Shown here piece by piece: positions 30,912-64,000 of a stretch of 64,000 nt of DNA; position 1 is the stretch's first letter, and every line of letters begins with the position of its first letter. The notes beneath the pieces were generated by a model. That model was given only the letters and a program-made list of their open reading frames with translations. It did no database searches and was not told the DNA's origin. Source of the DNA: an uncultured Candidatus Binatia bacterium (lineage in GTDB: Bacteria > Desulfobacterota > Binatia > UBA9968 > CAXXLF01); assembly GCA_965218425.1 (NCBI GenBank), contig OZ244621.1, positions 3,552,001 through 3,616,000 of the forward strand, written 5' to 3'. The position numbers and the translations under genes are program-made.

Positions 30912-31804
30912 ATGGATGGAATCATCGGATGCATGGCCATGTCCCATGCGCCTCAGTTGATGCTTAAGCCTGATCGGTGGGGTCTTTTGAATACTAGAAG
31001 CGGGGATTTTCTGCCGGAGCGTCCTGACCTCAAGAATGAAACAATGGACGTAAAGTGGTCGAAATGGAGTCGCTGCCAAGCCGCTATTGATATTCTCCGG
31101 CTCAAACTGGAGGAGCTTGCTCCAGATGTGGTGATTCTTATCGGGGATGACCAGCACGAAAACATCCTGGAGGACAATACACCTCCGTTCACGGTCTTTA
31201 CGGGGGAGGAATTCGAGGCGAGCGTTAGTCTTAGGTACCTCAACCAACCTAAATCGGAAAACCGGACTCGCTATAAAGTGAATACCGACATGGCCATGGC
31301 CATCACGAATGCGCTCATGGAGATGGAATTCGACCCTGCTTACTCTAACAAGACTCGTTACGAGGGCGGAATGGGGCATGCCTTTGCACGAGTCCTTAAG
31401 TTCCTCACGCCAGAACATCGATCCCCGTGGTTCCTATCATGGTGAACACCTATTATCCCCCGGCCCCTTCGGCCAAACGTTGCGTTCGCTTCGGAAAGTT
31501 ATTAGCGACCGTCATCAGGCAGTTTCCAGGTCAGGGCCGTGTCATAATCATTGGGTCAGGAGGTCTCAGTCGCACCAAGATTGATGAGGAATTGGATCGA
31601 GGATTTATACGCGCCTGGAAAGGAAACGACATGGGATACCTCGATTCCTTTTCTTTGTCTGCCTTGATTGAAGGGACCTCTGAAATAAGAAACTGGATCG
31701 TCACCGCAGCCGCGGCGGATCGGCCCGCGAAAATGGTGGAGTATTCCCCCCTTTACAGGACCACCAATGGCGTGGGCTGCGCCATGGGATTTGCCACCTG
31801 GTAA
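30912..31804 (+). pseudogene. LigB-type (class III) extradiol dioxygenase, frameshifted near 31420
   Basis: MSHAP, GDDQHEN, GHAF in frame 1; VPIMVNTYYPP, GSGGLS(R), GTSEIRNW in the -1 frame. Confidence 0.85.
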
Positions 31805-40797: not shown

Positions 40798-40973
40798 GCC
40801 ATTGACCTCCTCCAGTTTCCCATTGCGTGATTGCTAGGACGCATAGTATTAAATGCCTTGCTCAGAATCAAGCATGCTTTGTGGAAAATTTGACATGATG
40901 CGGACCCTGTATTAAAAGTGCCCGTGTCAGCTAACGGTTTGGCACAGAATGTATCCGTCCATTGGAGGACTAT

Positions 40974-41513
40974 ATGGCAGATCCGAATGTATTGCACCTG
41001 GCGCACTATACTGTCGTTGTTCGAGACATTCGTGTTGCAGAAGCCTTCTACACTAAAGTCATGGACGCAGACGTGATCCGGCGAAGTTGGAACCCTGATG
41101 AGCCAGACCCGGCGGGTGATAAGAGAGGACGGCGCTTTACCCAGCTCAAGCTCGGTAGCGTGGTCTTCGATGCCTTCGAGGAACCCTTTGGCCCCTGGCC
41201 GGAGCGACGCAATTTGACTCAGCATCCTCACTATGCCTTTGAGGTTAAGTCTCTCAAGGAATCGAGCCTGCGGCTTGACGAGCATAAGATCCCCTATGAG
41301 TGGAATACTTTTCACGGTCCTGGAGTAGGGATCTACTTCGGCGATCCGGATGGGAACCACCTTGAATACATCGAATCCCGAGGACACTCAAAAGAAGGTA
41401 TCAAGGTTGGTGATCCCGATTGGCCACGGCTCCAATACGATTTTGACCCGCAAACCGCCATGGGCACTCTAGTCGACCTGTCAACATCATCCACCGGCGT
41501 TGACGCAAGTTAA
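40974..41513 (+). CDS. VOC (glyoxalase/extradiol dioxygenase) family protein
   Basis: LAHYTVVVRD, PHYAFEV, YFGDPDGNHLE (H/H/E metal set). Confidence 0.88.
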   Translation: MADPNVLHLAHYTVVVRDIRVAEAFYTKVMDADVIRRSWNPDEPDPAGDKRGRRFTQLKLGSVVFDAFEEPFGPWPERRNLTQHPHYAFEVKSLKESSLRLDEHKIPYEWNTFHGPGVGIYFGDPDGNHLEYIESRGHSKEGIKVGDPDWPRLQYDFDPQTAMGTLVDLSTSSTGVDAS

Positions 41514-42478: not shown

Positions 42479-43612
42479 CTAGTTTTGTTTTTCCTCGTAT
42501 GACGTGGCATCGGAAGGCAATATTCTGATTCGATCTGGCGGCAACTGTGCGGAAATCTTTGCTCCGGTGTTAAGCGGGCTGCTACCTTCAACCTCTGTTT
42601 GACATCGCTCAGCCCCGATTTGTAACTCGCACTGGGTGCGATTGCCGATAAATATGGTTCGAAGAACTGTTGCGGGAAAGGTATTCGGGAGCTCATGTGA
42701 CGCTCCAGGGAATGAAACGATTTCCTCGGGACGGATGGTGAGCAAAACCTTATCGCCGGCAGAATACTGGCTATTCAAACCAGGCGCCGTGCACTCAACT
42801 TTTCCGAAGCTGCAGGTTACCACTAACGTACCCTTGGGTTGGTCCTTTTCAATAGTTCCCGAAATAAAATTAGTCTGACCGACGAATCCTGCCACGTAGG
42901 CGTTCGTTGGGTTCATGTATATACCTCGTGGCGCCTCCAGTTGCTGTATGATGCCGTTGCGCATGACCGCAATGAGGTCCGAAAGCACCAAGGCCTCTTC
43001 CTGGTCGTGGGTTACGTATAGAGTGGTCACACTGAGATCCTTGATAAGTCCCTGCAACTCGGTTCGCATGCTAACACGGAGCTTGGCGTCCAGGTTGCTG
43101 AGTGGCTCGTCCAAGAGAAGAACCGTTGGTTCGTATACAAGGGCGCGTGCCAGGGCCACCCTTTGCTGCTGGCCGCCACTTAAAAGGGGTGCGGGTCGGT
43201 CTGCCATGGAAGCCATCTGAACCCGTTCCAAGGCCTGCATGGTCCTTGGGCGCCATTCCTTCTTGGGAGCCTTGTTGGGGCCGTGCCTTAAGGGAAAGAC
43301 TACATTTTCAAATACCGACATGTGTGGCCAAATGGCGTAGGACTGGAATACCATACCGGTGCCCCGCTCATTGATAGGGACGTTGATCCCCCTCGGGGAG
43401 CTGAAGACAACATGATCCCCCAACGCGATCTCTCCTTCATTGGGTGTCTCGATACCGGCAATGCAACGCAATGTGGTGCTCTTGCCACATCCAGAAGGAC
43501 CCAGGAGGGTGAAAATCTGGCCTTTTTGCACGTCAAAGCTCACACCACAAACCGCTTCCACCGGTCCTTGATCCGAAATATAAGTTTTTCGTAGACCTTC
43601 AACTTTTAGCAT
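42479..43612 (-). CDS. ABC ATP-binding protein (FbpC/PotA-like, TOBE domain)
   Basis: GPSGCGKS, VFQSYAIWPHM, LSGGQQQR, LLDEP, VTHDQ. Confidence 0.95.
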   Translation of the reverse strand: MLKVEGLRKTYISDQGPVEAVCGVSFDVQKGQIFTLLGPSGCGKSTTLRCIAGIETPNEGEIALGDHVVFSSPRGINVPINERGTGMVFQSYAIWPHMSVFENVVFPLRHGPNKAPKKEWRPRTMQALERVQMASMADRPAPLLSGGQQQRVALARALVYEPTVLLLDEPLSNLDAKLRVSMRTELQGLIKDLSVTTLYVTHDQEEALVLSDLIAVMRNGIIQQLEAPRGIYMNPTNAYVAGFVGQTNFISGTIEKDQPKGTLVVTCSFGKVECTAPGLNSQYSAGDKVLLTIRPEEIVSFPGASHELPNTFPATVLRTIFIGNRTQCELQIGAERCQTEVEGSSPLNTGAKISAQLPPDRIRILPSDATSYEEKQN

Positions 43613-43716: not shown

Positions 43717-45498
43717 TTAAAATCCACCTCGTTGGGTCAGTCGGCCTCCGGTAAACGCTAAGGCGACCAACAGCAACAGTCCCATAACAGACACCATAAC
43801 CACCGCAGCAGCTGAGGCTTCACCCAATTGGCCACTGTCCCATAGTCCCCAGACTGCAACCGATAGCACCATATTGTTGGTTTCAGTCAAAAATAGCGCC
43901 ATACTGACCTCCCGGAAGGTTAGCAGGGCCGTCCATAGACTTGCAAATACCAGGGAAGGTCTAACCAATGGCATAATAATGCTCCACAGGGTGGGAATAT
44001 TCCCAGCGCCACACACTCGGGCGGATTCCTCCAGCTCTGGAGTAACCTGCAAAAGGGAGGCGTTCGTAATTCGGGTCGTGTACGACAATCGATTAAGCAA
44101 GTTAGCCAATACGATTATGCCCACGGTTCCGCTAATAGGAATTGACGGGAACCAAACAGAGGCCAGGATCCCTAGCATGAATAAAGCAAATGCAAAGGCA
44201 AGACCAGGAAAGGCGTGGGGAAGCATGGCAATGGTATCCATGGTATTGCGGACTCGAAGACGGGTTCGTACAACAATCCAGGAAATCATTAAGCTGAAAA
44301 ATATGGCTAGGGCCGAAACGCTGAACAACAGCACCACGGTATTGCGCATCACGTCTTGCCCGCCAATAAACTCCATGAAGCTTCGGTAGTTCTCGAGGCT
44401 TAACTTCGATAGGGCTTTCACAGACGGCATTTGAATGATGGGCAAAAACGAAATCCAGAGCAGGACCAGCATGGGCAAGACCACTGCCAAAAGTAGGTAG
44501 AGAAGAATAAAACCCACGCCCAGATATTTAAATGGCCCTAATTCGATATCTCGGGGCCTGTAACCCTTCCCGGTAATGACCCCGTAGCGATGGGCCTTCG
44601 CCAGTACCTGATGATAGAAATACAATGCCACAAGACTCGGGGCGGCAATCATTGTGGCATAGACGCCTGCAGCGCCGTATTTGACATCCAATGAATCCGG
44701 CGTCGTGGGCCGCACTGCATAGAAAAGTTCACTGGACAGCACCGGCGCCTTTCCACCCGCGGCTCCAAGCATGGCGGGGACCTCAAATATAGAAATGGCC
44801 GTCATGAAGACGTAAATGGCCCCCCCGAGAATCCCAGGCCACATCAACGGGAGGCTGATTTTGACAAAGGTCCACCAGCGATTTGCTCCCGAAACACCGG
44901 CCACATCTTCCAAGGCTGGGTCAAGGGCCCGCATGGGACCAGAGATGAGAAAAAACATGGTCGGGGTCAGAATCAACCCCATGACCCAGGCGATACCATA
45001 AGGGTTATTTAGGTTAAGCGCCAAACTATCGATTCCAAGGAGGCCAGCCACGGCATTGTTGATGAGACCAATCCGCTCATTGACCAGCATGATCCAGCCC
45101 ATGGTTTTGACAAACCCGGGGATAATTACCACTACGGCGATCAACGTAATGAAGAGATTTCGAAATGGAATTGCGGTTCGATTGAGTAAGAACGCCAATG
45201 GACAGGCAAAGAATAGAGCAACCAGTGTAGCCCCGGACCCAACAATGATTGTATTGGGAATCACCTCAGTCAGGACATAAGGCCGGAATGCATTGGTCCA
45301 GTGGCTTAGTGTCAATCCTGGCTCGAAGGGGAGGCCAGGAACAAAGGTCATGTAAAAAACAAAGACCACCAGTGCCACAATGGCTGAAAGGACGATCCAA
45401 GACAGTGTCAGCGGCAGAGCATATGGGCCTAGCGTCGGGGTGAGGCGTTTCCTCGCGTGCTCGAGCCCTGTCCCTCTAGCGGTCTCTACACCCTCCAT
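43717..45498 (-). CDS. ABC permease (FbpB-like)
   Basis: Two EAA loops (LEDVAGVSGA, LEESARVCGA). Confidence 0.92.
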   Translation of the reverse strand: MEGVETARGTGLEHARKRLTPTLGPYALPLTLSWIVLSAIVALVVFVFYMTFVPGLPFEPGLTLSHWTNAFRPYVLTEVIPNTIIVGSGATLVALFFACPLAFLLNRTAIPFRNLFITLIAVVVIIPGFVKTMGWIMLVNERIGLINNAVAGLLGIDSLALNLNNPYGIAWVMGLILTPTMFFLISGPMRALDPALEDVAGVSGANRWWTFVKISLPLMWPGILGGAIYVFMTAISIFEVPAMLGAAGGKAPVLSSELFYAVRPTTPDSLDVKYGAAGVYATMIAAPSLVALYFYHQVLAKAHRYGVITGKGYRPRDIELGPFKYLGVGFILLYLLLAVVLPMLVLLWISFLPIIQMPSVKALSKLSLENYRSFMEFIGGQDVMRNTVVLLFSVSALAIFFSLMISWIVVRTRLRVRNTMDTIAMLPHAFPGLAFAFALFMLGILASVWFPSIPISGTVGIIVLANLLNRLSYTTRITNASLLQVTPELEESARVCGAGNIPTLWSIIMPLVRPSLVFASLWTALLTFREVSMALFLTETNNMVLSVAVWGLWDSGQLGEASAAAVVMVSVMGLLLLVALAFTGGRLTQRGGF

Positions 45499-45534: not shown

Positions 45535-46083
45535 TCACGCCCTGTCATTCAAAAGCTGGCCGTTGTGAACTAATTTACCGGTGACGGGAATGGGGTTCTT
45601 GATGGTGTTTATGGTATGACATCCCTGCTCGATCCTGGCTAGCAATTGTTTAACCTTTTCCGCAGGGGCCGGGCTCCTAATATCAAACGTGTACATTACA
45701 CCCCGGCACGCCGGCGAGACATCCGCGATGCCCAGTTTCCCCCGGGTGTCGTAACTCATCCGTATATCCATCTTCGCATCGTCGATCTGAACATCCAGTT
45801 CTGACGCGTACCGCGTCAGTTGGCTGAACATTCAAAATCCCGTTGCAGCGACAAAGTACTGGAGGGGCGAGGGCGCCTTACCTCCTCCTCTCCTGGACTT
45901 CGCTTCGTCGCAGAGGATCGTATACTCTCCAACTCTCGCCTCCTTGAGTTGGTCTTCAACCAGACGAATCGCGGCCCGAGTCTGGATGGTATGACCTTCT
46001 GCGCCCGTCCTTGCCCGTTTTCGTTGCTCCTCAGTGGCATCTCGAAATTTGACCAGATCGATCTTTCCGGCCGGCTTACTCAT
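45535..46083 (-). CDS. OsmC/Ohr family peroxidase, predicted selenoprotein (Sec at TGA 45834-45832; 182 aa)
   Basis: ORFs 45832-46083 and 45535-45831 abut in frame; DEAKSRRGGGKAPSPLQYFVAATGF-[TGA]-MFSQL puts TGA at the first catalytic Cys; second Cys in IEQGCHT; SECIS-like hairpin follows. Confidence 0.88.
45794..45828 (-). promoter_or_regulatory. Bacterial SECIS-like stem-loop
   Basis: mRNA UGA-aug-uucag-ccaa-CUGACGCG-gua-CGCGUCAG-aa-cugga; perfect 8-bp stem, G-initiated loop 20 nt after UGA. Confidence 0.75.
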
Positions 46084-46100
46084 GATAAATGCCCTCCGCG

Positions 46101-47240
46101 CTAGCGGCGTTGCCTTATTTTCTTAGTAATGTCTCTCCTGTATGCCTTTCCTTCGTCCGTGCCGAACCATTTCAAGACTTCGAGGGACTCTGGACTGTCA
46201 TAAAAGGAAAGAAGTTTTGATCCGCTCTCCTTTAAGGTCTTCCTGGCCATTTTGTCATAATCACTTTGGCCCCAGTGAACATTGGTGTAGAAAGAGGGAG
46301 GTTGCCAAATCGCCTCTGCCTCTGGGGTTCCCATCCACATGCTAAAGAGAGTCCCCACCGCAGAATGACGAGCGCCCTTGGGAACAATGTAGAAGATCTG
46401 CGTTGTACCGGTGCCGTCCGCATACCAACGGTATCCTATTGGAGCCTCCGAATCCTTAGCCTTGGCGGAAAGATAGTGGTAGAAGTTCCCCGGGAAAAAT
46501 GCAAATTCTCCAAGGAGCAACCGGTTTTTTGCTTGCGTTGTGTGCATGACCCCGGCCGAATTCTTGCCGATCGTATCCACCGTCTTTAGCCATTTGTCTC
46601 TTTCGTAGACAAGGGTTCCTAACTCCCACTCGCTGGTAAAGATTCCCAATGCGTATTGTCCTTTATATTTTGGATTGGCCATATCGGCCCGACTCTTGGG
46701 CAGGTCTTTTTCGGAGATCAGTTTCGGGTTATAGATCATGACCTTATTTCGACCCGCAAAAGAAAAGGCATACCCAGTAAAAGGTGATGGACTCACCTCC
46801 TCTGGTTTCACCTTGCCAGAACGGACTAGAGGGTTGATCTCTGCAAGCAGAAGCTTCCAGTTGGCTATCTTCTGGGCATTTCCGGCATGCATCAATTCGA
46901 CAACATTATCGCCAGCGCCTGGGTATGTATCGTAGGGAGGTTTTCCGCCCGCCCTTAATGTAGCAAACAGCTGTGCGTAGGCTTTGGTTTGGCCTCCTTT
47001 CGCGATGTTGCTCTTGAGGTTATTGAGGCCGAACCGTTTTTTGAATGCCTTCATAAGTTTTGGGGTTACCCTGCCGGCCTGTCGGACCACCTGCGTGGTC
47101 AGGACGCCTTCTTTTTTCGCCTGAGCAATCAGCTCATCCAGGACCCTTTTGCCTTCGGTACTGGCAGCTACTGGCTGGGCCAGAGCAATGGTAATAACCA
47201 AACACAAAAAGACGCCAATACTTTTACCTAAGCTTTTCAT
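46101..47240 (-). CDS. ABC substrate-binding protein
   Basis: Signal peptide (IALAQPVAA), LIAQAKKEG, YNPKLI, PKYKGQ, VPKGARH. Confidence 0.85.
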   Translation of the reverse strand: MKSLGKSIGVFLCLVITIALAQPVAASTEGKRVLDELIAQAKKEGVLTTQVVRQAGRVTPKLMKAFKKRFGLNNLKSNIAKGGQTKAYAQLFATLRAGGKPPYDTYPGAGDNVVELMHAGNAQKIANWKLLLAEINPLVRSGKVKPEEVSPSPFTGYAFSFAGRNKVMIYNPKLISEKDLPKSRADMANPKYKGQYALGIFTSEWELGTLVYERDKWLKTVDTIGKNSAGVMHTTQAKNRLLLGEFAFFPGNFYHYLSAKAKDSEAPIGYRWYADGTGTTQIFYIVPKGARHSAVGTLFSMWMGTPEAEAIWQPPSFYTNVHWGQSDYDKMARKTLKESGSKLLSFYDSPESLEVLKWFGTDEGKAYRRDITKKIRQRR

Positions 47241-49356: not shown

Positions 49357-49560
49357 TCTGCCTGTCCTCCTCGACGATTAGTCATCCTGCTGTCGAGCGG
49401 CAACGTTGTATCTAAAAGGTATATTCCGCCTCGCCGCTCCCCCCGGAAGGCTTGACGGGAAACTCACGAAGCGATATTACACCAATGAGGTTCCTACGCA
49501 AGATCCTGTGGAGGTTGGTTGTTTGGCTCTCCATGCCTTTGCGTGAAAAAGGGGATGCAT

Positions 49561-50256
49561 ATGATCACTAGAGATCTAAAATCCGGTGAGGCTTTAATTG
49601 GAGAATTGGAGGGATATCGGAGGGAGCATCGAAAAGAGTTTCCCTTTCGGAACGAGATTGGAAAGACAAAGGAGAAGATTATCGAGTCGAAACGTGCCAA
49701 GCATGCTGGAGGTTCGGATAATCATAAATTCGAGGGGGAAAGGTATCTCAACTGCACCGCCAAAACCATCCGCCGCCGGCAGCTGCGCAAACTGGTGGAT
49801 GAAGGCGGGTTGAGCACCTTTGGGGGGAAGGTTCCGAGCCATGCCATGTTGGATCGCATTGGATCCTACGAATTTGGGATAACCGATGACGAGATTACTG
49901 AACTAGAAAAAGGCGATCCATCGGCGGAGAAGCTCATTGTCAGGGGCTGGTGGGTCCATCTCAACCGGACCCAGCACTGGTCCATTGCCATAGGGAGTGG
50001 CATGGTTGTGGAGGGCGAAAAGAAAGTGGACCCCGAGAAAGAGGCCGAGGAGATTCAAACCATGAGGGAAGACTATGCGGAGATGGGTATTAAAAATTTG
50101 GACAATGCGCTCTGGTTCGCCTCGGAGCATGCGGAGGTGGACATAGATCATACTGAATTCAATGAGGCGGTCATCAAGCAATTTGTTAATACACCTGAAT
50201 TGCAAAATGAATTGAGAAAGGCATTCATCCTGCGTCTACAAAACCAGGGGTTTTGA
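49561..50256 (+). CDS. Heme-oxygenase-like (PqqC/CADD/TenA fold) putative diiron protein HDO-1
   Basis: RRRQLRKLVDEGG...PSH...VEGE...EHAEVDIDH (E,H,E,H,D,H). Confidence 0.7.
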   Translation: MITRDLKSGEALIGELEGYRREHRKEFPFRNEIGKTKEKIIESKRAKHAGGSDNHKFEGERYLNCTAKTIRRRQLRKLVDEGGLSTFGGKVPSHAMLDRIGSYEFGITDDEITELEKGDPSAEKLIVRGWWVHLNRTQHWSIAIGSGMVVEGEKKVDPEKEAEEIQTMREDYAEMGIKNLDNALWFASEHAEVDIDHTEFNEAVIKQFVNTPELQNELRKAFILRLQNQGF

Positions 50257-50282
50257 ATCGGTAGTTACCGAGGGGGTGTTAC

Positions 50283-51062
50283 ATGTCAGAGTTGCCCTAT
50301 GGACCAGAAGACCTGAAGGAACCGGCGCTGAGTGCAGAGGCCTTTATTCGGTTCCTCCAAGACGAAAAAGCGAAGAAATACCCGGAGCTGCCTCCTTTGT
50401 TTCAAAACCTCCATGAGGGTAAATACAGCAAAGAGCATTTGAAGCTGTGGGTGAAGGATATGTACCTGTATTGGGATTATGCCCTGGTTTACAGTACCGG
50501 CGCTATTTATGTGAAGACCAATGACGAAGAGGTGAGAACCCAAATACTTAGAAAGCTGGTGGATATCGAAGGAAAAGAAGTGGTCAAGGATCTAACCGGC
50601 TGGACCACGCCGGCTTACGAAGAGCTTTGGCTCCGCTTTGGTGAAGGGCTCGGAATCTCCAGGGAAGAGATTCAGTCTTGGAAATCATTCACTCGGAGCC
50701 ATTACGCCATGACAACCCTCTGCATGCTTTCCCGATGGTGGGAGTGGACTTGGTTAGACGGCGTGGCGAGTTTGTATGCTGGAGACCTCCACGGAAGGGA
50801 TTCCCTAGGTGGAGTGAGAGAGGCCATGAAAAAGCACTATGATGTTGCGGGCAATAGCTTGGAAATTTTTCGAGTCCTTGAGGAGGACGCGGCATCCCAT
50901 ATCCCTTGGGAGGAACAGGCGCTTGCCCATTGGTGCTGCACCCGGGAGAGGCAATTGACGGCGGCCAGAGCGTTTCGAAAGCGACTGGATATTGAAAATC
51001 AGCTGCTTGTGGCACCCCATCGGGCGGCCACCTCGGAACGGATGCCTCTTCAAATCCCCTAG
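50283..51062 (+). CDS. PqqC/CADD/TenA-fold protein HDO-2 with degenerate metal site
   Basis: LHEGKYSKEHLKLWVKD, RKLVDIEG, ELWLRFGEGLGISREE, WLDGVASLYAGD. Confidence 0.75.
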   Translation: MSELPYGPEDLKEPALSAEAFIRFLQDEKAKKYPELPPLFQNLHEGKYSKEHLKLWVKDMYLYWDYALVYSTGAIYVKTNDEEVRTQILRKLVDIEGKEVVKDLTGWTTPAYEELWLRFGEGLGISREEIQSWKSFTRSHYAMTTLCMLSRWWEWTWLDGVASLYAGDLHGRDSLGGVREAMKKHYDVAGNSLEIFRVLEEDAASHIPWEEQALAHWCCTRERQLTAARAFRKRLDIENQLLVAPHRAATSERMPLQIP

Positions 51063-51104
51063 CGCAAGAGATTGTCCCAGGAGAGATTGGAAGGAATGAT
51101 TGGA

Positions 51105-51812
51105 ATGGACACGGAAACTCTTCGGGAGAATCTGATCCGGTGCATTCGTATGATGGACATGATCGCCCTTGTGGAGCACAACGGTCATGTGAGCGTACGA
51201 ATCCCCGGGACGGACCGGGTTCTCATCCAATCGCGTTACTCCAGTCGTGCGACACTGACATCGAAGGATATTGTCACCGTGGATCTCCGGGGAAACCTAC
51301 TGGAAGGCGAAGACGAGCCACCCAGCGAGACACCCATCCATACTTGTATCTATCGGGCGCGGAAAGACATTGGATCGGTGGCCCATCTCCACTGCCACTA
51401 TGCGGTATTGCTCAGTATGAGCGGTGTGGCCTTTGCCCCGGTATGCAACGATGGAATTCTCTTTGCCCGTGATGGCGTGCCACTTTTTCCCCATTCGTGG
51501 AACATAGGTAGCAATAAACGCGGTGAGGCCTTGGCTGAAACCTTGGGAGGCGCCAAAGCAGCGCTCATGAAAGGTCATGGAGCCGTGGTGGTATCGGAGG
51601 TCCTGGAAGGCCTGTTTCAGACTGCCTATCAACTTGAACAGAACGCGCGCTATCAGTACGAGCTCATGTTACTGGGAAAGTTACAACCCTTCACGGAAGG
51701 GGACGTTCGAAGTGCCCCGAAGCAAACCCTAGGGGCTTTGGAGGGCAAACGAAAGTGGAAAGTATGGGATTATTTTGTTTCCGTAGCCGAAAAGAGAGGC
51801 GTGTTTGATTGA
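51105..51812 (+). CDS. Class II aldolase/adducin family metalloenzyme
   Basis: NGHVSVRIPG, PPSETPIHTCIYRAR, VAHLH, LMKGHG. Confidence 0.92.
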   Translation: MDTETLRENLIRCIRMMDMIALVEHNGHVSVRIPGTDRVLIQSRYSSRATLTSKDIVTVDLRGNLLEGEDEPPSETPIHTCIYRARKDIGSVAHLHCHYAVLLSMSGVAFAPVCNDGILFARDGVPLFPHSWNIGSNKRGEALAETLGGAKAALMKGHGAVVVSEVLEGLFQTAYQLEQNARYQYELMLLGKLQPFTEGDVRSAPKQTLGALEGKRKWKVWDYFVSVAEKRGVFD

Positions 51813-51839
51813 ATCTAGATGAGTATAGGAGGGGAGAAT

Positions 51840-52541
51840 ATGTCTCATCCGCTGGTACCTGGTGACGAGTTTTTAGAAGAATTGGAAGGGTTGCGCAGAA
51901 ATCATCTCAAAGGTGGACTCTTGCGGCCGCGTGCCCACCATAGGACCAAAGAGGAGGTTGCGGAGTCAAGACGAAGATATCATCGAGGAGGGGACAACAA
52001 CCACCGTTTCGAGGGCGAGAGATACTTAAACTGTACGGATAAGGCTATTCGGCGCAAGCAACTCCGTAAACTGATCGACGAAGGGGGACAAACCACGGTG
52101 GGTGGGAAGACACCCAGCCATCCCACACTCGCCCGGTGGGAATCGGAGGAGTTTGGGTTAACCGATGAGGAAATCACCCGGTTGGAAAAGGAGGATTGCG
52201 GCCCCGAAAAGCTCATTGTGTGGGGCTGGCGCGTTAACATGCATCGCACCAGCGATTGGTCCGTAGCCATCGGAAGCTCCCTGGTGGGCGAGGGGGAAAA
52301 GAGGATTCCCGAGATCAGACAACATCTCCTGGACAATGTTAAGATATTGAGAAAAGAGTACGCAGAGATGGGTATCAAAGACGTGGAGCGGGCCCTGGCC
52401 TTTAAAATTGAACACGCCGACGTGGACGTGGACCACGCAGAGCTAGGAGCGGACGTGGTGAGAAGATACGTGAATACCCCCGAACTTCAGGACGAGATGC
52501 GTAAAGCTTTCTCGTTGACGCTCCATATGCACGGATACTGA
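51840..52541 (+). CDS. Heme-oxygenase-like putative diiron protein HDO-3, paralog of HDO-1
   Basis: NHRFEGERYLNCT, RKLIDEGG...PSH...GEGE...EHADVDVDH. Confidence 0.7.
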   Translation: MSHPLVPGDEFLEELEGLRRNHLKGGLLRPRAHHRTKEEVAESRRRYHRGGDNNHRFEGERYLNCTDKAIRRKQLRKLIDEGGQTTVGGKTPSHPTLARWESEEFGLTDEEITRLEKEDCGPEKLIVWGWRVNMHRTSDWSVAIGSSLVGEGEKRIPEIRQHLLDNVKILRKEYAEMGIKDVERALAFKIEHADVDVDHAELGADVVRRYVNTPELQDEMRKAFSLTLHMHGY

Positions 52542-54533: not shown

Positions 54534-55675
54534 CTAGCGTCTCTGGGTCACGGCCGCTTTGATCTTGGAACGATATTTTCTCCCCTCGTCAGTGGCCCAC
54601 CATTTTAAGGTCGCCACCGTCTCAGGTGATTGTAGATAGGATACCAATCTGCTTCCGCTCTTTTTGATAGCGGCCTTAGAACGGTTGTCGATGTCGCTCT
54701 GTCCGAAAATCAGGTTCTCCTGTGGGCTTGCAGCCTGTAGAATCGTTTGCGCCTCAGGGGTGGTCATCCACAGAGACCAAAGCGTTGCGCCAGCGGGATG
54801 CCTTGAGCCTCTGGGAAGCAGATACATCATAGGTGAAAGGGGTGTGTAATCGGAGAACCAATGGAGGCCAACGGGGGCCTTAGGGTCACGCGTTTTCACT
54901 CCCCAATACTCGGCGCTGTTCATATAGGTGTAGCATATTCTTTCAACAGGATGCGGTTAAGGGCAGGTTGAAAACGCATGACTGCGGCAGCGTTTTTTCC
55001 GATACGATCCATGGTCTTGAGCCATTTGGATTTGTCTTTGTAAACTAAAATCCCCTGTTCGAAGATATCGGTCCACGGGGCGACGGTAAACTTGCCTTTG
55101 AACTTGGGGTCAGCAAGATCGATAATGCGCCTGGGGATGGTCTTCACGGAAGCAAGCTCCTTGTGGTAAACCATTACTTTGGTACGGGATCCCCAGATAA
55201 ACGCTTGACCCCCAACTACGGAAGGGCTCACTTGGTGGGCTTTAACTGTCCCTGAGGCCACCATGGGATTCACGGCGGCAAGCAGTGGCTTCCAGTTTTT
55301 TACCGGTGTCGCATAGCCTTTTTCCACCGTCACAATAGCGTCGTTGGCACTGCCGGTTAGGGAGTGAAACTGTGGTCTCCCGCCGGCTCTAAGGGTAATC
55401 AACATCTTGGCGAATTTGCCTGCCTGGTCACCCAATGCCACATTGATTTTGAGGTTTAGGCCGAATCTTTTGTTGAAGGCCTTCACAAGCTTGGGAACCC
55501 CGGGTCCCAACTGGGTGACGGTAGCCGTGTCGAGGGTGCCTTCCTTTTTTGCTTTCTCGATCAGGTCATTTAAGAGTTTTTTTCCTTCGGAATTGGCGGA
55601 CGCATGGATAATTCCAAATGATATAAAGGCAACTGTCGATACCGCGACCATGATAAGCTTCCCTGGGGCGTTCAT
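54534..55675 (-). pseudogene. ABC substrate-binding protein, paralog of 46101-47240, frameshifted near 54930
   Basis: NRILLKEYA|(YTY)MNSAEYW aligns with paralog NRLLLGEFAFFPGNFYHYL if one base is restored. Confidence 0.82.
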
Positions 55676-56778: not shown

Positions 56779-56962
56779 AGCTTTTCCCTCCTCCTATAAA
56801 ATCTATATAATTTTAGGAACATCGTTATCATGGAAAGTTTAAAGCTGTCAAGGGGAGTCCAGGATTTCGTCTTGGATGGCCGTGTAAGCAAATAGACGGC
56901 TTGACACCAGCACGGTCTATCATGGCATATAGGGATTGCTGATCCGATGGGAGGCTATATTT

Positions 56963-57772
56963 ATGGAAAAAACAGTTCTTACCATGTCGTCGGACCTTCA
57001 GCTGGAAGAGGGAGTGCCGGGCCTGCCGGCTGATGAGTTCATCGCCGGCATTTGGCTGGAGCGCAGGCGATACGTAAGGGAAGGCCGGATCAAGCAGCCA
57101 CATCCTTGGAGTGTTGCTTTAGCCGAGGGTAAAGTGTCCAGAGAAGCCGTCATCGCCTACGTGAAAAACCGCCATTACTTTTTGGCCAATATCAATCGCA
57201 AGGACGCCCAGATCATCGCCAACTGTCCGGTGTCGGAGGCCAGGCGACAATTGATGCGGAAATACATCGATGAGGAGGGCCAGGATATCGTAGGAGGACA
57301 ATTGGGTCCCCATTACGAGATGTGGGTCAAAGTGGCGGAGGGGTTTGGCGTCTCCAGGGATGAGCTGAACAGTTTCAAAGATGTTTTGCCGGCCTACCGT
57401 TACACGGTGGACGCCGTCTTTAACTTTGCCAAGCACCATGGTTGGCTGGAAGGACTGGCCGCCACTTATGCTACGGAAGGGCAAATGTGGAGGCGTTATA
57501 CTCCAAAAGATGAGCACAAGGATACAAAGCTTCTGGGCGAGGGTGAGGCGCTGAAGAAATACTACGGCCTCCTGGACGGGGCGCTGGAGTTTTTCAATGT
57601 GCACAGTGACGCCAACGACGAGCACGGCGACATCTGTGAGAATATCATCAAAAAATACTGTACGACCCAGGAACTCCAGCGGAAAGCTCTAGCGGCAGCC
57701 CGGTTCAGGTGGGACAATCACGAGACGCGGCAGGATATTGTCTATCACTATTTCGTTTCAGATCGAAGCTAG
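56963..57772 (+). CDS. PqqC/CADD-like protein HDO-4
   Basis: HPW...NRHYFLANINRKDAQIIANCP...RR...IDEEG...PHYEMW...ATEG...FFNVHSDANDEH. Confidence 0.82.
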   Translation: MEKTVLTMSSDLQLEEGVPGLPADEFIAGIWLERRRYVREGRIKQPHPWSVALAEGKVSREAVIAYVKNRHYFLANINRKDAQIIANCPVSEARRQLMRKYIDEEGQDIVGGQLGPHYEMWVKVAEGFGVSRDELNSFKDVLPAYRYTVDAVFNFAKHHGWLEGLAATYATEGQMWRRYTPKDEHKDTKLLGEGEALKKYYGLLDGALEFFNVHSDANDEHGDICENIIKKYCTTQELQRKALAAARFRWDNHETRQDIVYHYFVSDRS

Positions 57773-57951
57773 AGGTATTGCTTCCCGTCTTGGTTGATCG
57801 CCGTCTCCCACCGAATTTGCGACTGACTCAAAAATGGCGGTGATCAACTCAACCCATCTGTGAACTTTGCCTGAAGGAGCGCACAGCATCAACTTGACAA
57901 GGTATTGGCGTAAAGCTATGAGGTATGAAAAGTCTATGGGGTCAATCCGGC

Positions 57952-58754
57952 ATGGCAACCCTTACAGAACTGAGAGATAGGGTCCGGGAAATGTACAAAG
58001 GGACTAAAACACCCTGGGCCTACCCTAGATTCCCGCAGCCACCGGAAGACTTTTTGCCCCCGGAAAAATTTCTTGAGGTGGTATCCGAAGCGGTCCTGTT
58101 TCATCACACCAAAATCAACCATCCGTTTTGTGTCAGGCTAGTGCGTGGAGAGTGGTCCAAGAGCCAGCTTCAGGCATGGGCCATTCAAGATTACCATGCG
58201 AAGGTCCAGACCCTTAGGAACGACGCCTACATCGTGGCGACGGCGTCTAATTTGGAAGAATTGCAAGAACAGCTCAAGGTGTTGATTTCTAAGTCGGGCG
58301 AGGATCTAGCGGGGGGAAGTACCCCAGCCACCCCGAACTCTGGCTGAGGTTTGCCGAGGCGCTAGGGCTTAGGCGGGAGGACGTGACAAAGTCTGAGCTC
58401 ACACCGTTGATGCAGGTGGTGCTGGACGCCAAGCGCTTTCGGTCCATGAAACAAAACGTGGGTGATCTTCCTGCGAATTTGAGGGTAGGGGAAAAGATCA
58501 ACTCTCTTGTGCACCCCATCTGGGCCGAAGCTTTTGTGGAGAAATACAAGATTGACACCAGTGCCCTGGATTTTTTCACCGCCCATGGAGAAGCGGACCA
58601 GGACCATGGGAAGCTAGGCGAGCAGATCGTTTTAAGTCGGGCGGTTACCAAAGAGGCCCAACGGGCCATCTGGCTGCATCTGAAGACGAGCCAGGGAAAG
58701 CAGTGGGTGACTTACGATGCCTTCTACCAGTCTGCTCTGCAGGCAGGTGAGTGA
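57952..58754 (+). pseudogene. PqqC/CADD-like protein HDO-5, frameshifted at G6 run 58311-58316
   Basis: INHPFCVRLVRGEWSKSQLQAWA in frame 1; one restored base gives GGKYPSHPELWLRFAEALG...FFTAHGEADQDH. Confidence 0.82.
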
Positions 58755-59542: not shown

Positions 59543-60303
59543 TCAGGCTCGGATGTCTCCATCGCCTGTGTGTGGCTTTCCCGTAAAAAAGCATGGGACC
59601 TCGCCCGCCGCGACCCGTTGGGCACCGCCGCTGTATCCGCGGCCGATGACAGGATCATGGGCCTTGAATTTTCTAAACAAGTCGAAGGCACGCTCCCAGT
59701 CCCACTTTCCGTTCTTGCGCCACAGCCAGGCCAATCGACCGGGTATCTCCTCCGACGAACGGGACAACATGGTTTTACCCTTCCATTTTGGATCGCCCAT
59801 CTCTTCCCAGGTTTTTGGCACGTCCTTAGGCGATACGAGATCCGTGTTATACATCACTTGTACTCTGGGGTTCCCCAATCCCCCCACGTATAGCCCATGG
59901 GGAGGTTGACTACCCCGAACAAAATCCTTGAGATGAGGGCATGTGTTTTTGGCAAGAAGATTTCGTCTCACGAAGATCTCCGAACCATCCTCACTGATAC
60001 CCGCCCAATCGATGGTCAAGCGCCCGGCCTTTGCCTCGAGAGACACTCGGTTGACGGTATCTTTGGTGTTCATCTCGATATCCTTGATAGTCATAAAGGG
60101 GTATCTCTTTCGGAACCCTTTTAAATCTCGCTTTAGGTCCTCTGCGATGCTACCTGAAAGCACGAGGGTCCCTTCTTTCTTAGCCTTTGCAATCATCTGA
60201 TCCCGAAGAGAACCAGCAAAGGCGTCTGGTTGACTCAGGGGACCCCAATCATTAGAGCTAAAGCGAACAGGCTCAACATATAAAATCTCGTTATTCCCTT
60301 CAT
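59543..60303 (-). pseudogene. ABC substrate-binding protein, frameshifted in the signal peptide and C-terminally truncated
   Basis: ATG 60303 after AAAGGA gives MKGITRFYMLSLFALALMIGVP*; mature part (AKAKKEG...) is in the -1 frame; similarity to paralog 63289-64000 stops at AAGEVP. Confidence 0.8.
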
Positions 60304-60367
60304 GATTAGGCATCCTTTAAATAGCCAACGAAATCAATCTATGACAACGCTCTACATTATTTGTTAT

Positions 60368-63288: not shown

Positions 63289-64000
63289 CTACTTGATGCC
63301 TAGTAGTTTGAAGAAGAAGGTTTCAGATTTCTTTTGAATCTTTGTATCAAACATCAGCTCCACGTCCATAGGCGTAGTGTTATCCACCGTGATGTCATTG
63401 TCCGTAAGCCATTTCCCGAGTTTACCGGCCTTGGCCTTTTTGTTGACTGGGACCTTAGCCGAAATAACTTCGGTGTATTCATGCTGTCCTTCGGGCGACG
63501 TGAGGTAGTCGATTAAGAGCCAGGAAGCAGATGGATGTTTAGCACCCTTGAGGATGCCAAAATTACGGAAGGTTCCGCTGAATCTAGGGAAGGCCACAAG
63601 GCCAATGGGTGCCCCTTTGAAATACATGCGAGAAGCTGGTCCCACCACGCCAAACCAAAACATCGGGACCTCGCCTGCGGCCACCCGCTTGATGCCGCCT
63701 CGATAACCCCGACCAATCATTGGTTTTTGTTTTGCCAGTTTTGTGAAGAAGTCGAAGGAGCGCTCCCAGTTCAATTTTCCACCCTTAGACCAGAAGTACG
63801 CCATTTGAGCAGGCATTTCCTCTGATGACCGAGACAACATAGTTTTGCCGGTCCATTTGGGGTCCGTCATCTCTTCCCAGGACTTGGGTATATCTTTGGG
63901 TGATACGAGCTTCGTATTATAGACTCCTTGCACTCTGGGATTCAAAAACGCCTTGATGTAAAGCCCATGCTTCGGTTGCGTTCCCGACGCGAAATCCCGT
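63289..64000 (-). CDS. ABC substrate-binding protein (5' partial)
   Basis: Frame open to window end; YNTKLVSPKDIPKSWEE, PKWTGK, VAAGE, AKHPSAS. Confidence 0.85.
   Translation of the reverse strand, partial: RDFASGTQPKHGLYIKAFLNPRVQGVYNTKLVSPKDIPKSWEEMTDPKWTGKTMLSRSSEEMPAQMAYFWSKGGKLNWERSFDFFTKLAKQKPMIGRGYRGGIKRVAAGEVPMFWFGVVGPASRMYFKGAPIGLVAFPRFSGTFRNFGILKGAKHPSASWLLIDYLTSPEGQHEYTEVISAKVPVNKKAKAGKLGKWLTDNDITVDNTTPMDVELMFDTKIQKKSETFFFKLLGIK

Follow-up and report, generated by a model that had tools for sequence, protein, structure and literature searches.

A predicted OsmC-related selenoprotein encoded between ABC transporter genes in an uncultured Candidatus Binatia bacterium

On the minus strand of a 64,000-nt stretch of DNA from an uncultured Candidatus Binatia bacterium (this whole stretch is called the window here), two short open reading frames follow one another, separated by a single TGA. 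This raises the question whether they are two small genes or the two halves of one selenoprotein, and what such a protein would do among the genes of an ABC transporter. The preliminary description of this DNA had read them as one frame, and the TGA at 45834-45832 (minus strand) is indeed the sole break. The joined 182-aa OsmC protein that it proposed is borne out as well, since the product passes the cut-offs of both the Pfam OsmC and the NF041052 model once U84 is read through. Hereby, NF041052 ("OsmC-related (seleno)protein"; cut-off 95 bits) gives 149.6 bits for the joined protein and 52.4 and 76.6 bits for its halves, with 141 bits in the genome search, while Pfam OsmC (PF02566; cut-off 27.5 bits) gives 50.9 bits for the joined protein, 25.9 bits for the C-terminal half and no match for the N-terminal half. 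The features of the gene are as follows.

45535..46083, minus strand: predicted OsmC-related selenoprotein gene (NF041052), 182 aa, with an ordinary TGA stop at its end
45832-46083, minus strand: open reading frame of the N-terminal half, 83 aa, in the same frame as the C-terminal half
45535-45831, minus strand: open reading frame of the C-terminal half, 98 aa, in the same frame as the N-terminal half
45832..45834, minus strand: in-frame UGA, predicted Sec84, in the OsmC-fold column of the peroxidatic Cys
45619..45621, minus strand: Cys155, predicted resolving cysteine, invariant in 19 close rows and Cys in 119 of 123 rows
45910..45912, minus strand: Cys58, an extra cysteine kept in the clade, invariant in 19 close rows and Cys in 26 of 104 distant homologs
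45892..45894, minus strand: Arg64, judged from motif spacing to be in register with the OsmC active-site Arg
45862..45864, minus strand: Leu74, at the place of the OsmC/Ohr catalytic Glu
46093..46097, minus strand: GGAGG, ribosome-binding-site-like, 9 nt 5' of the ATG

Besides the in-frame UGA at codon 84, the gene's own stop codon is also a TGA. Directly 3' of the in-frame TGA stands an ATG (Met85), and 35 of 37 database matches are partial or otherwise not full-length, many of them with a start at Met85. We considered this ATG as a designed re-initiation site and rejected the idea, because Met85 is kept in Cys homologs too. At the level of sequence, it is confirmed that the two apparent short genes form one intact gene with a predicted selenocysteine at its active site.

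Recoding of UGA84 and the downstream hairpin

UGA84 is almost certainly recoded as selenocysteine by the SelB/tRNA-Sec system via the hairpin that lies downstream of it. The genome, which is 97% complete, encodes selA, selB and selD, all above cut-off, together with a tRNA-SeC(tca), so that the machinery which the preliminary description had wanted looked for is present; selD of the genome itself has one in-frame TGA, and selA occurs in 58 of the 61 genomes searched within the order. Peptide patterns with no preference for TGA yielded 31 related loci of 54-87% identity, 23 from metagenomes and 8 from genomes; all 31 have TGA at codon 84, but several are near-identical, so that the independent cases are fewer than 31. 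Of the best 30 matches from 61 related genomes, 24 carry TGA at this codon and 6 carry TGC/TGT. The expected pairing of Cys with UGA is seen in 98 of 104 distant full-length homologs with Cys in the column, and Cys stands there in PDB 3cje, 2opl and 9wo1 as well. As to TGC or TGT in reads, two of four runs compared (X2 and X3, from two studies), either of which may be the source of this DNA, have contigs that span the gene, and these keep the TGA with no other letter; run X6 has a gap at the gene.

That the TGA is instead a sequencing error, a nonsense mutation, a true stop between two small genes or a Trp codon of another code is highly improbable. Several genes in the window of this assembly are frameshifted, so errors do occur; one database protein, P0002, has Trp at the Sec column, and an ATG stands immediately 3' of the TGA. 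Against these points stand the TGA itself, which is kept in all the loci and in both runs, the Cys rather than Trp of the homolog column, the gene's own end at a TGA stop, the presence of Met85 in the Cys homologs, and a hairpin under silent-site selection that is lost in the Cys forms. Given the conservation of the TGA across loci, assembly error cannot account for UGA84 despite the frameshifts nearby. A gene call made with a different genetic code, or a change to TGG, may explain the Trp of P0002. The frameshifted genes of the window (54534-55675, a binding protein; 30912-31804, LigB-like; 57925-58754, haem-oxygenase/TenA-like) may represent assembly errors or decay, and 59543-60313 and 63289-63945 resemble incomplete binding proteins as well.

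The candidate SECIS element comprises the following two features.

45801..45819, minus strand: putative SECIS upper stem-loop, CUGACGCG-GUA-CGCGUCAG, whose loop begins 20 nt past the UGA
45788..45834, minus strand: longer form of the hairpin, less conserved (88% of cells paired), in which the UGA is part of an 11-bp lower stem

In the order 3' of the UGA, 12 nt are followed by CUGACGCG, the 3-nt loop GUA and CGCGUCAG, which is the stem with a G-first loop that had been described from the sequence. According to PMC13188914, the model for a bacterial SECIS asks for a loop of 3-9 nt with G within its first two positions, a stem of 4-16 bp, a spacing of 16-37 nt and an energy of -7.5 kcal/mol or lower. 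With its GUA loop, 8 bp, 20 nt and -11.6 kcal/mol, the hairpin lies within all of these bounds, as the preliminary description had supposed, and its loop (GU) matches the common G[G/U] pattern. A 60-nt fold has -23.6 kcal/mol (z = -3.29), with 0 of 200 shuffles equally stable. Of random genomic TGA triplets, 89 of 3000 passed a simple bSECIS rule and 9 of 3000 had a hairpin as stable under this rule. Within codons 89-94, four of the five four-fold sites are invariant across 28 orthologs, compared to 0 of 57 elsewhere, where the highest value is 77%, and the hairpin is lost in the six Cys orthologs. Compensatory changes were found in 0 of 19 pairs, and pair counts are no better than those of shuffles; as there is no two-sided pair change, the RNA evidence consists of silent-site freezing and one-sided G-U changes. 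A search with Rfam gave no match anywhere in the window. One ortholog (L066:6241-6304) has UAG for Tyr92, in the region of the hairpin loop, and Glu for Gly82, and is probably a pseudogene or an error.

Fold, active site and relatives

The structure predicted for the product (pLDDT 95) has its best fold match in PDB 2opl (GSU2788; TM 0.77-0.79), with the Ohr and OsmC structures lower, and a profile search agrees, giving E 2.5e-28 to structures of the Ohr-like/YhfA group. By its sequence, the product has the OsmC/Ohr fold and is a member of NF041052. The peroxidatic/resolving pair of the Ohr/OsmC superfamily is present as U84 and C155. In contrast, the models for Ohr (TIGR03561) and OsmC (TIGR03562) gave no match at E <= 0.001, and column 74 holds Leu in 89 of 123 rows, with Glu outside the five commonest residues. 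In the register with the E. coli OsmC segment, as read from the motif, Pro73 corresponds to Pro48, Leu74 to Glu49 and Arg64 to Arg39. We take Arg39, Glu49 and Cys59 to be the catalytic residues of E. coli OsmC. Arg64 is R in 24 of 24 Sec rows (21 close rows and a more distant Sec group, with two distant in-genome paralogs excepted) and, as aligned, in 2 of 6 Cys rows. The catalytic Glu is thus missing, and the catalytic Arg may be kept. Of the label "OsmC-family peroxidase" in the preliminary description, the family part stands; with TIGR03561 and TIGR03562 unmatched and Leu74 in place of Glu, "peroxidase" is a reading that goes beyond the sequence.

Canonical Ohr and OsmC depend on two conserved residues, Arg and Glu, and a third, "Ohr-like" or YhfA, group has neither; this group is described as poorly characterised and of unsettled activity (PMC5384416, PMC8945050). 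For an Ohr-like protein that lacks Arg and Glu, peroxidase activity was absent in one study and present in another, as summarised in PMC5384416. The protein described here belongs, by its predicted features, with this group. Its best matches in both sequence and fold are GSU2788 of Geobacter sulfurreducens (PDB 2opl) and Jann_2040 of Jannaschia (PDB 3cje), in which the Glu of Ohr/OsmC is likewise absent; both differ from it in having Cys instead of Sec and reach 18-20% identity in the fold alignment, and 2opl also lacks the second Cys. With canonical OsmC (E. coli, PDB 1qwi/1nye) and Ohr it shares the fold and two redox residues about 70 residues apart, and with OsmC also, as judged from the motif, an Arg in register with Arg39; it has Leu at the Glu49 position and Sec for the peroxidatic Cys and is about 40 residues longer.

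OsmC-like selenoproteins had been predicted before, as the preliminary description noted and as the 2005 prediction (PMC1088965) and the NCBIfam model NF041052 attest. The Sargasso Sea survey of that year reported an "OsmC-like protein" family (PF02566/COG1765) of three sequences with the motif UXXT (PMC1088965), and the family is also listed in PMC9312934 and PMC13188914. The selenoprotein is a further member of this already catalogued family, which it resembles in passing the NF041052 cut-off, in having Sec at the first conserved Cys and in a SECIS that agrees with the published model. It differs from the listed motif UxxT in having UxxS (U-M-F-S), although the family includes S (45 of 123) as well as T (43 of 123), and from NF041052 and the Sargasso Sea sequences in an N-terminal helix and the extra Cys58. 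In the literature searched, we found no experimentally characterised OsmC-like selenoprotein, and the passages of the BSepDB main text examined do not mention the family.

Several relatives lie within the same genome (G000), which carries three further TGA-bearing OsmC-like genes and one Cys form (contig C1: 1339416-1339853, minus; 4131050-4131463, plus; 4139948-4140220, minus; and 1399445-1399948, minus; three with an in-frame TGA and one with Cys). The three TGA genes have G-first-loop or similar hairpins. The copy at 4139948 follows the model for roughly two thirds of its length, then loses similarity, and looks frameshifted. An ortholog from the same genus (L041; G001:C5:155687-156213), situated among insertion-like repeats, has a frameshift 5' of the UGA and keeps both UGA and hairpin. 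Canonical Ohr was not found in any of the 61 genomes searched, and OsmC was found once, frameshifted, in 1 of 61; the OsmC-like selenoproteins may therefore fill the canonical Ohr/OsmC role.

Genomic neighbourhood and possible functions

The gene lies in a run of transporter genes, of which the following adjoin or follow it.

46101..47240, minus strand: ABC solute-binding protein gene (SBP_bac_8), upstream
43717..45498, minus strand: ABC permease gene (two BPD_transp_1 domains), downstream
42479..43612, minus strand: ABC ATPase gene with a TOBE domain, after the permease gene

It begins 17 nt behind the solute-binding-protein gene and ends 36 nt ahead of the permease gene. We found no minus-strand terminator-like site in either gap; a promoter scan gave 3 sites, with 4.8 expected, and coverage in one RNA run amounts to 268 nt of the binding-protein gene and does not reach the OsmC-like gene. 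Both flanking genes are recognised by Pfam, and the window contains four Rieske, two cupin, a LigB-like and several haem-oxygenase/TenA-like genes, some of them below Pfam cut-offs, in agreement with the earlier placement of the gene between binding protein and permease in an oxygenase-rich island. Five haem-oxygenase-like/TenA/PqqC/CADD-like genes stand amid class II aldolase-like genes (49519-52541 and 56936-58754 of the window) and are syntenic in L052 and L053. At 40962-41513 lies a VOC/glyoxalase-family gene; its FosA-family scores are weak and far under cut-off, and we do not call it a resistance gene.

The preliminary description had singled out this position as unusual. The arrangement does exist here, but it is local rather than conserved: only L052 (87% identical, with the whole island syntenic) repeats the order binding protein-OsmC-permease, and a conserved ABC link was accordingly rejected (1 of 31 loci). 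In L053 (85%), the gene stands between haem-oxygenase-like genes and the ATPase gene, with binding protein and permease absent beside it. Commoner neighbours than the ABC pair are Mo subunits, nitroreductases and other peroxide-related selenoprotein genes, the Mo subunit being the commonest. A Mo subunit of the xanthine-oxidase family lies directly upstream in 6 of the 31 Sec loci, and an unrelated MoCoBD gene lies downstream in L080; 24 of 31 loci have no adjacent Mo subunit. Nitroreductase and GntR genes are neighbours in 5 of 31 loci, which are near-identical and of which one was tested by Pfam. Three of the 31 loci have AhpD-like genes with a CxxU-type TGA directly beside the ortholog, and 3 of 31 have peroxiredoxin-like genes there; in the remaining loci, the neighbours are mixed or the stretch is too short. 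In L043 (3469-4023 and 5134-5730), L065 and L081, two AhpD-like genes (TIGR01926 above cut-off) with C-S-Y-UGA and hairpins adjoin a reductive-dehalogenase-like Fe-S gene and the OsmC-like selenoprotein gene. Behind the ortholog in G023 (L044:2980-5519) follow two peroxiredoxin-like genes (W-UGA-PYC) and one further gene, each with an in-frame TGA; the last of these is probably DUF3179-like.

The Cys orthologs stand behind a Mo subunit in 6 of 6 cases (4 by Pfam, 2 by C-terminal sequence), and selA is present in 5 of the 6 genomes concerned. They form a long-branch clade (L018-L023 and L045-L048; G029, G033, G047, G013, G007 and G015) with an altered loop before the active site and no hairpin. 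The Mo-subunit link is mostly one inherited locus, with Mo subunits 73-84% identical and a tRNA-Asn nearby in 4 of 10 loci scanned. In both trees, the gene of the window groups with the Mo-linked Sec forms (97/95 and 87/82), which suggests that it may have moved into the oxygenase island. A nesting of the Cys clade within the Sec clade was seen in one tree only (94/93), with no resolution in the second, and we did not retain it, as a separate Sec clade is not rejected (AU test, p = 0.335; 25 rows, with three in-genome paralogs and ten others left out). It stands, as far as these trees reach, that the nearest outgroups of the Cys clade carry Sec.

With these data, we lean towards a cytoplasmic hydroperoxide reductase with a Sec84/Cys155 pair that would serve the oxygenase-rich island. 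Hereby, SelB would read the hairpin so that Sec84 is inserted into a protein that is presumably cytoplasmic, as the sequence has no signal peptide, and presumably a homodimer like other OsmC-fold proteins. The selenolate of Sec84 would attack an organic hydroperoxide, and the resulting selenenic acid would form a Se-S bond (selenenylsulfide) with Cys155, to be reset by a dithiol donor, either lipoylated proteins or an AhpD-type protein. At neutral pH, Sec exists in the ionised form, which could make the missing Glu dispensable, with Arg64 kept. The gene probably shares a transcript with the ABC importer genes of an island that oxidises aromatics or heterocycles; in this way, the protein would be made while the oxygenases of the island run and could shield the cell and these oxygenases from peroxide by-products. 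A role in peroxide reduction is supported by the orthologs that adjoin AhpD-like CxxU and peroxiredoxin-like genes or, in G023, precede the two peroxiredoxin-like TGA genes, and in C. glutamicum AhpD acts as a reductant of OsmC (PMC8945050, section 4.2). Against it speak the absent catalytic Glu and the commonest neighbour, which is a molybdoenzyme subunit and not a peroxide gene.

That neighbour allows a different role, unlikely in our estimate, in which the Sec protein is no peroxidase and instead assists partner oxidoreductases, through Sec/Cys redox chemistry or as a sulfur relay. Its original partner would be a xanthine-oxidase-family molybdoenzyme, whose Mo-sulfido/selenido ligand it might, for example, keep or restore, and its recruitment to other catabolic clusters would have come later. 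The gene of the MoCoBD subunit, of about 740 aa, ends a few bases upstream in the Mo-linked Sec loci and in every Cys ortholog, and a second, unrelated MoCoBD gene occurs in L080; the catalytic Glu is gone, the third cysteine (C58) is kept, and in other bacteria, OsmC-like genes are responsive to limiting sulfur or stand in sulfide-handling clusters, according to PMC5069961 and PMC5157978. However, most Mo-linked cases are one inherited locus and not independent, the background is high (35 MoCoBD_1 matches in the 4.46 Mb of G000), the closest Mo subunit of G000 (71%) has no OsmC-like gene behind it, and most loci have no adjacent Mo subunit. In the literature searched, no paper tied the OsmC-like family to Mo subunits, one review having unrelated mentions, and none of 20 listed matches referred to Binatia.

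Rather unlikely, too, is another thiol/selenol oxidoreductase role, such as the repair of protein disulfides or of S-thiolation, or a reaction of the imported substrate, with a link to the importer or the island. The tight operon spacing and the lack of a minus-strand terminator-like site in the gaps speak for it, as does the arrangement repeated in L052 and the gene's staying with the island in L053, and ABC-transport selenoproteins do exist, namely SaoB, SaoP, SaoX, SaoC and SaoT (Haft and Gwadz; listed in PMC13188914). The Sao system likewise has a selenoprotein gene amid ABC transporter genes, but its Sec lies in transporter subunits and the link defines the system, whereas here the transporter frames are open and the link is not conserved. 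The Sao models found none of the transporter genes above cut-off (best SaoA, 161.9 bits; cut-off 360), the gene order recurs in the single locus named above, and L053 lacks the pair. The best explanation is that the OsmC-like selenoprotein is a passenger of the operon and not a transporter subunit.

A bolder proposal, which we consider improbable, is that the Sec clade and its Cys-reverted sister, which stays behind the same molybdoenzyme gene, are not peroxidases. Both would instead be selenium-based accessory factors for the loading or upkeep of the chalcogen ligand in xanthine-oxidase-family enzymes, of which this lineage has some 30 in each genome. If true, this would be the first function for the uncharacterised third (Ohr-like) subfamily and would provide a natural Sec/Cys ortholog pair.

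In conclusion, the correction of the annotation is well supported, as gene callers split this protein in two, and four TGA-bearing OsmC-like genes in one genome show a small expansion of the family. Natural Sec and Cys orthologs share one locus, and most of the genomes concerned retain selA. With this ortholog pair, it can be asked whether selenium takes the place of the Glu-Arg activation missing from the Ohr-like group.
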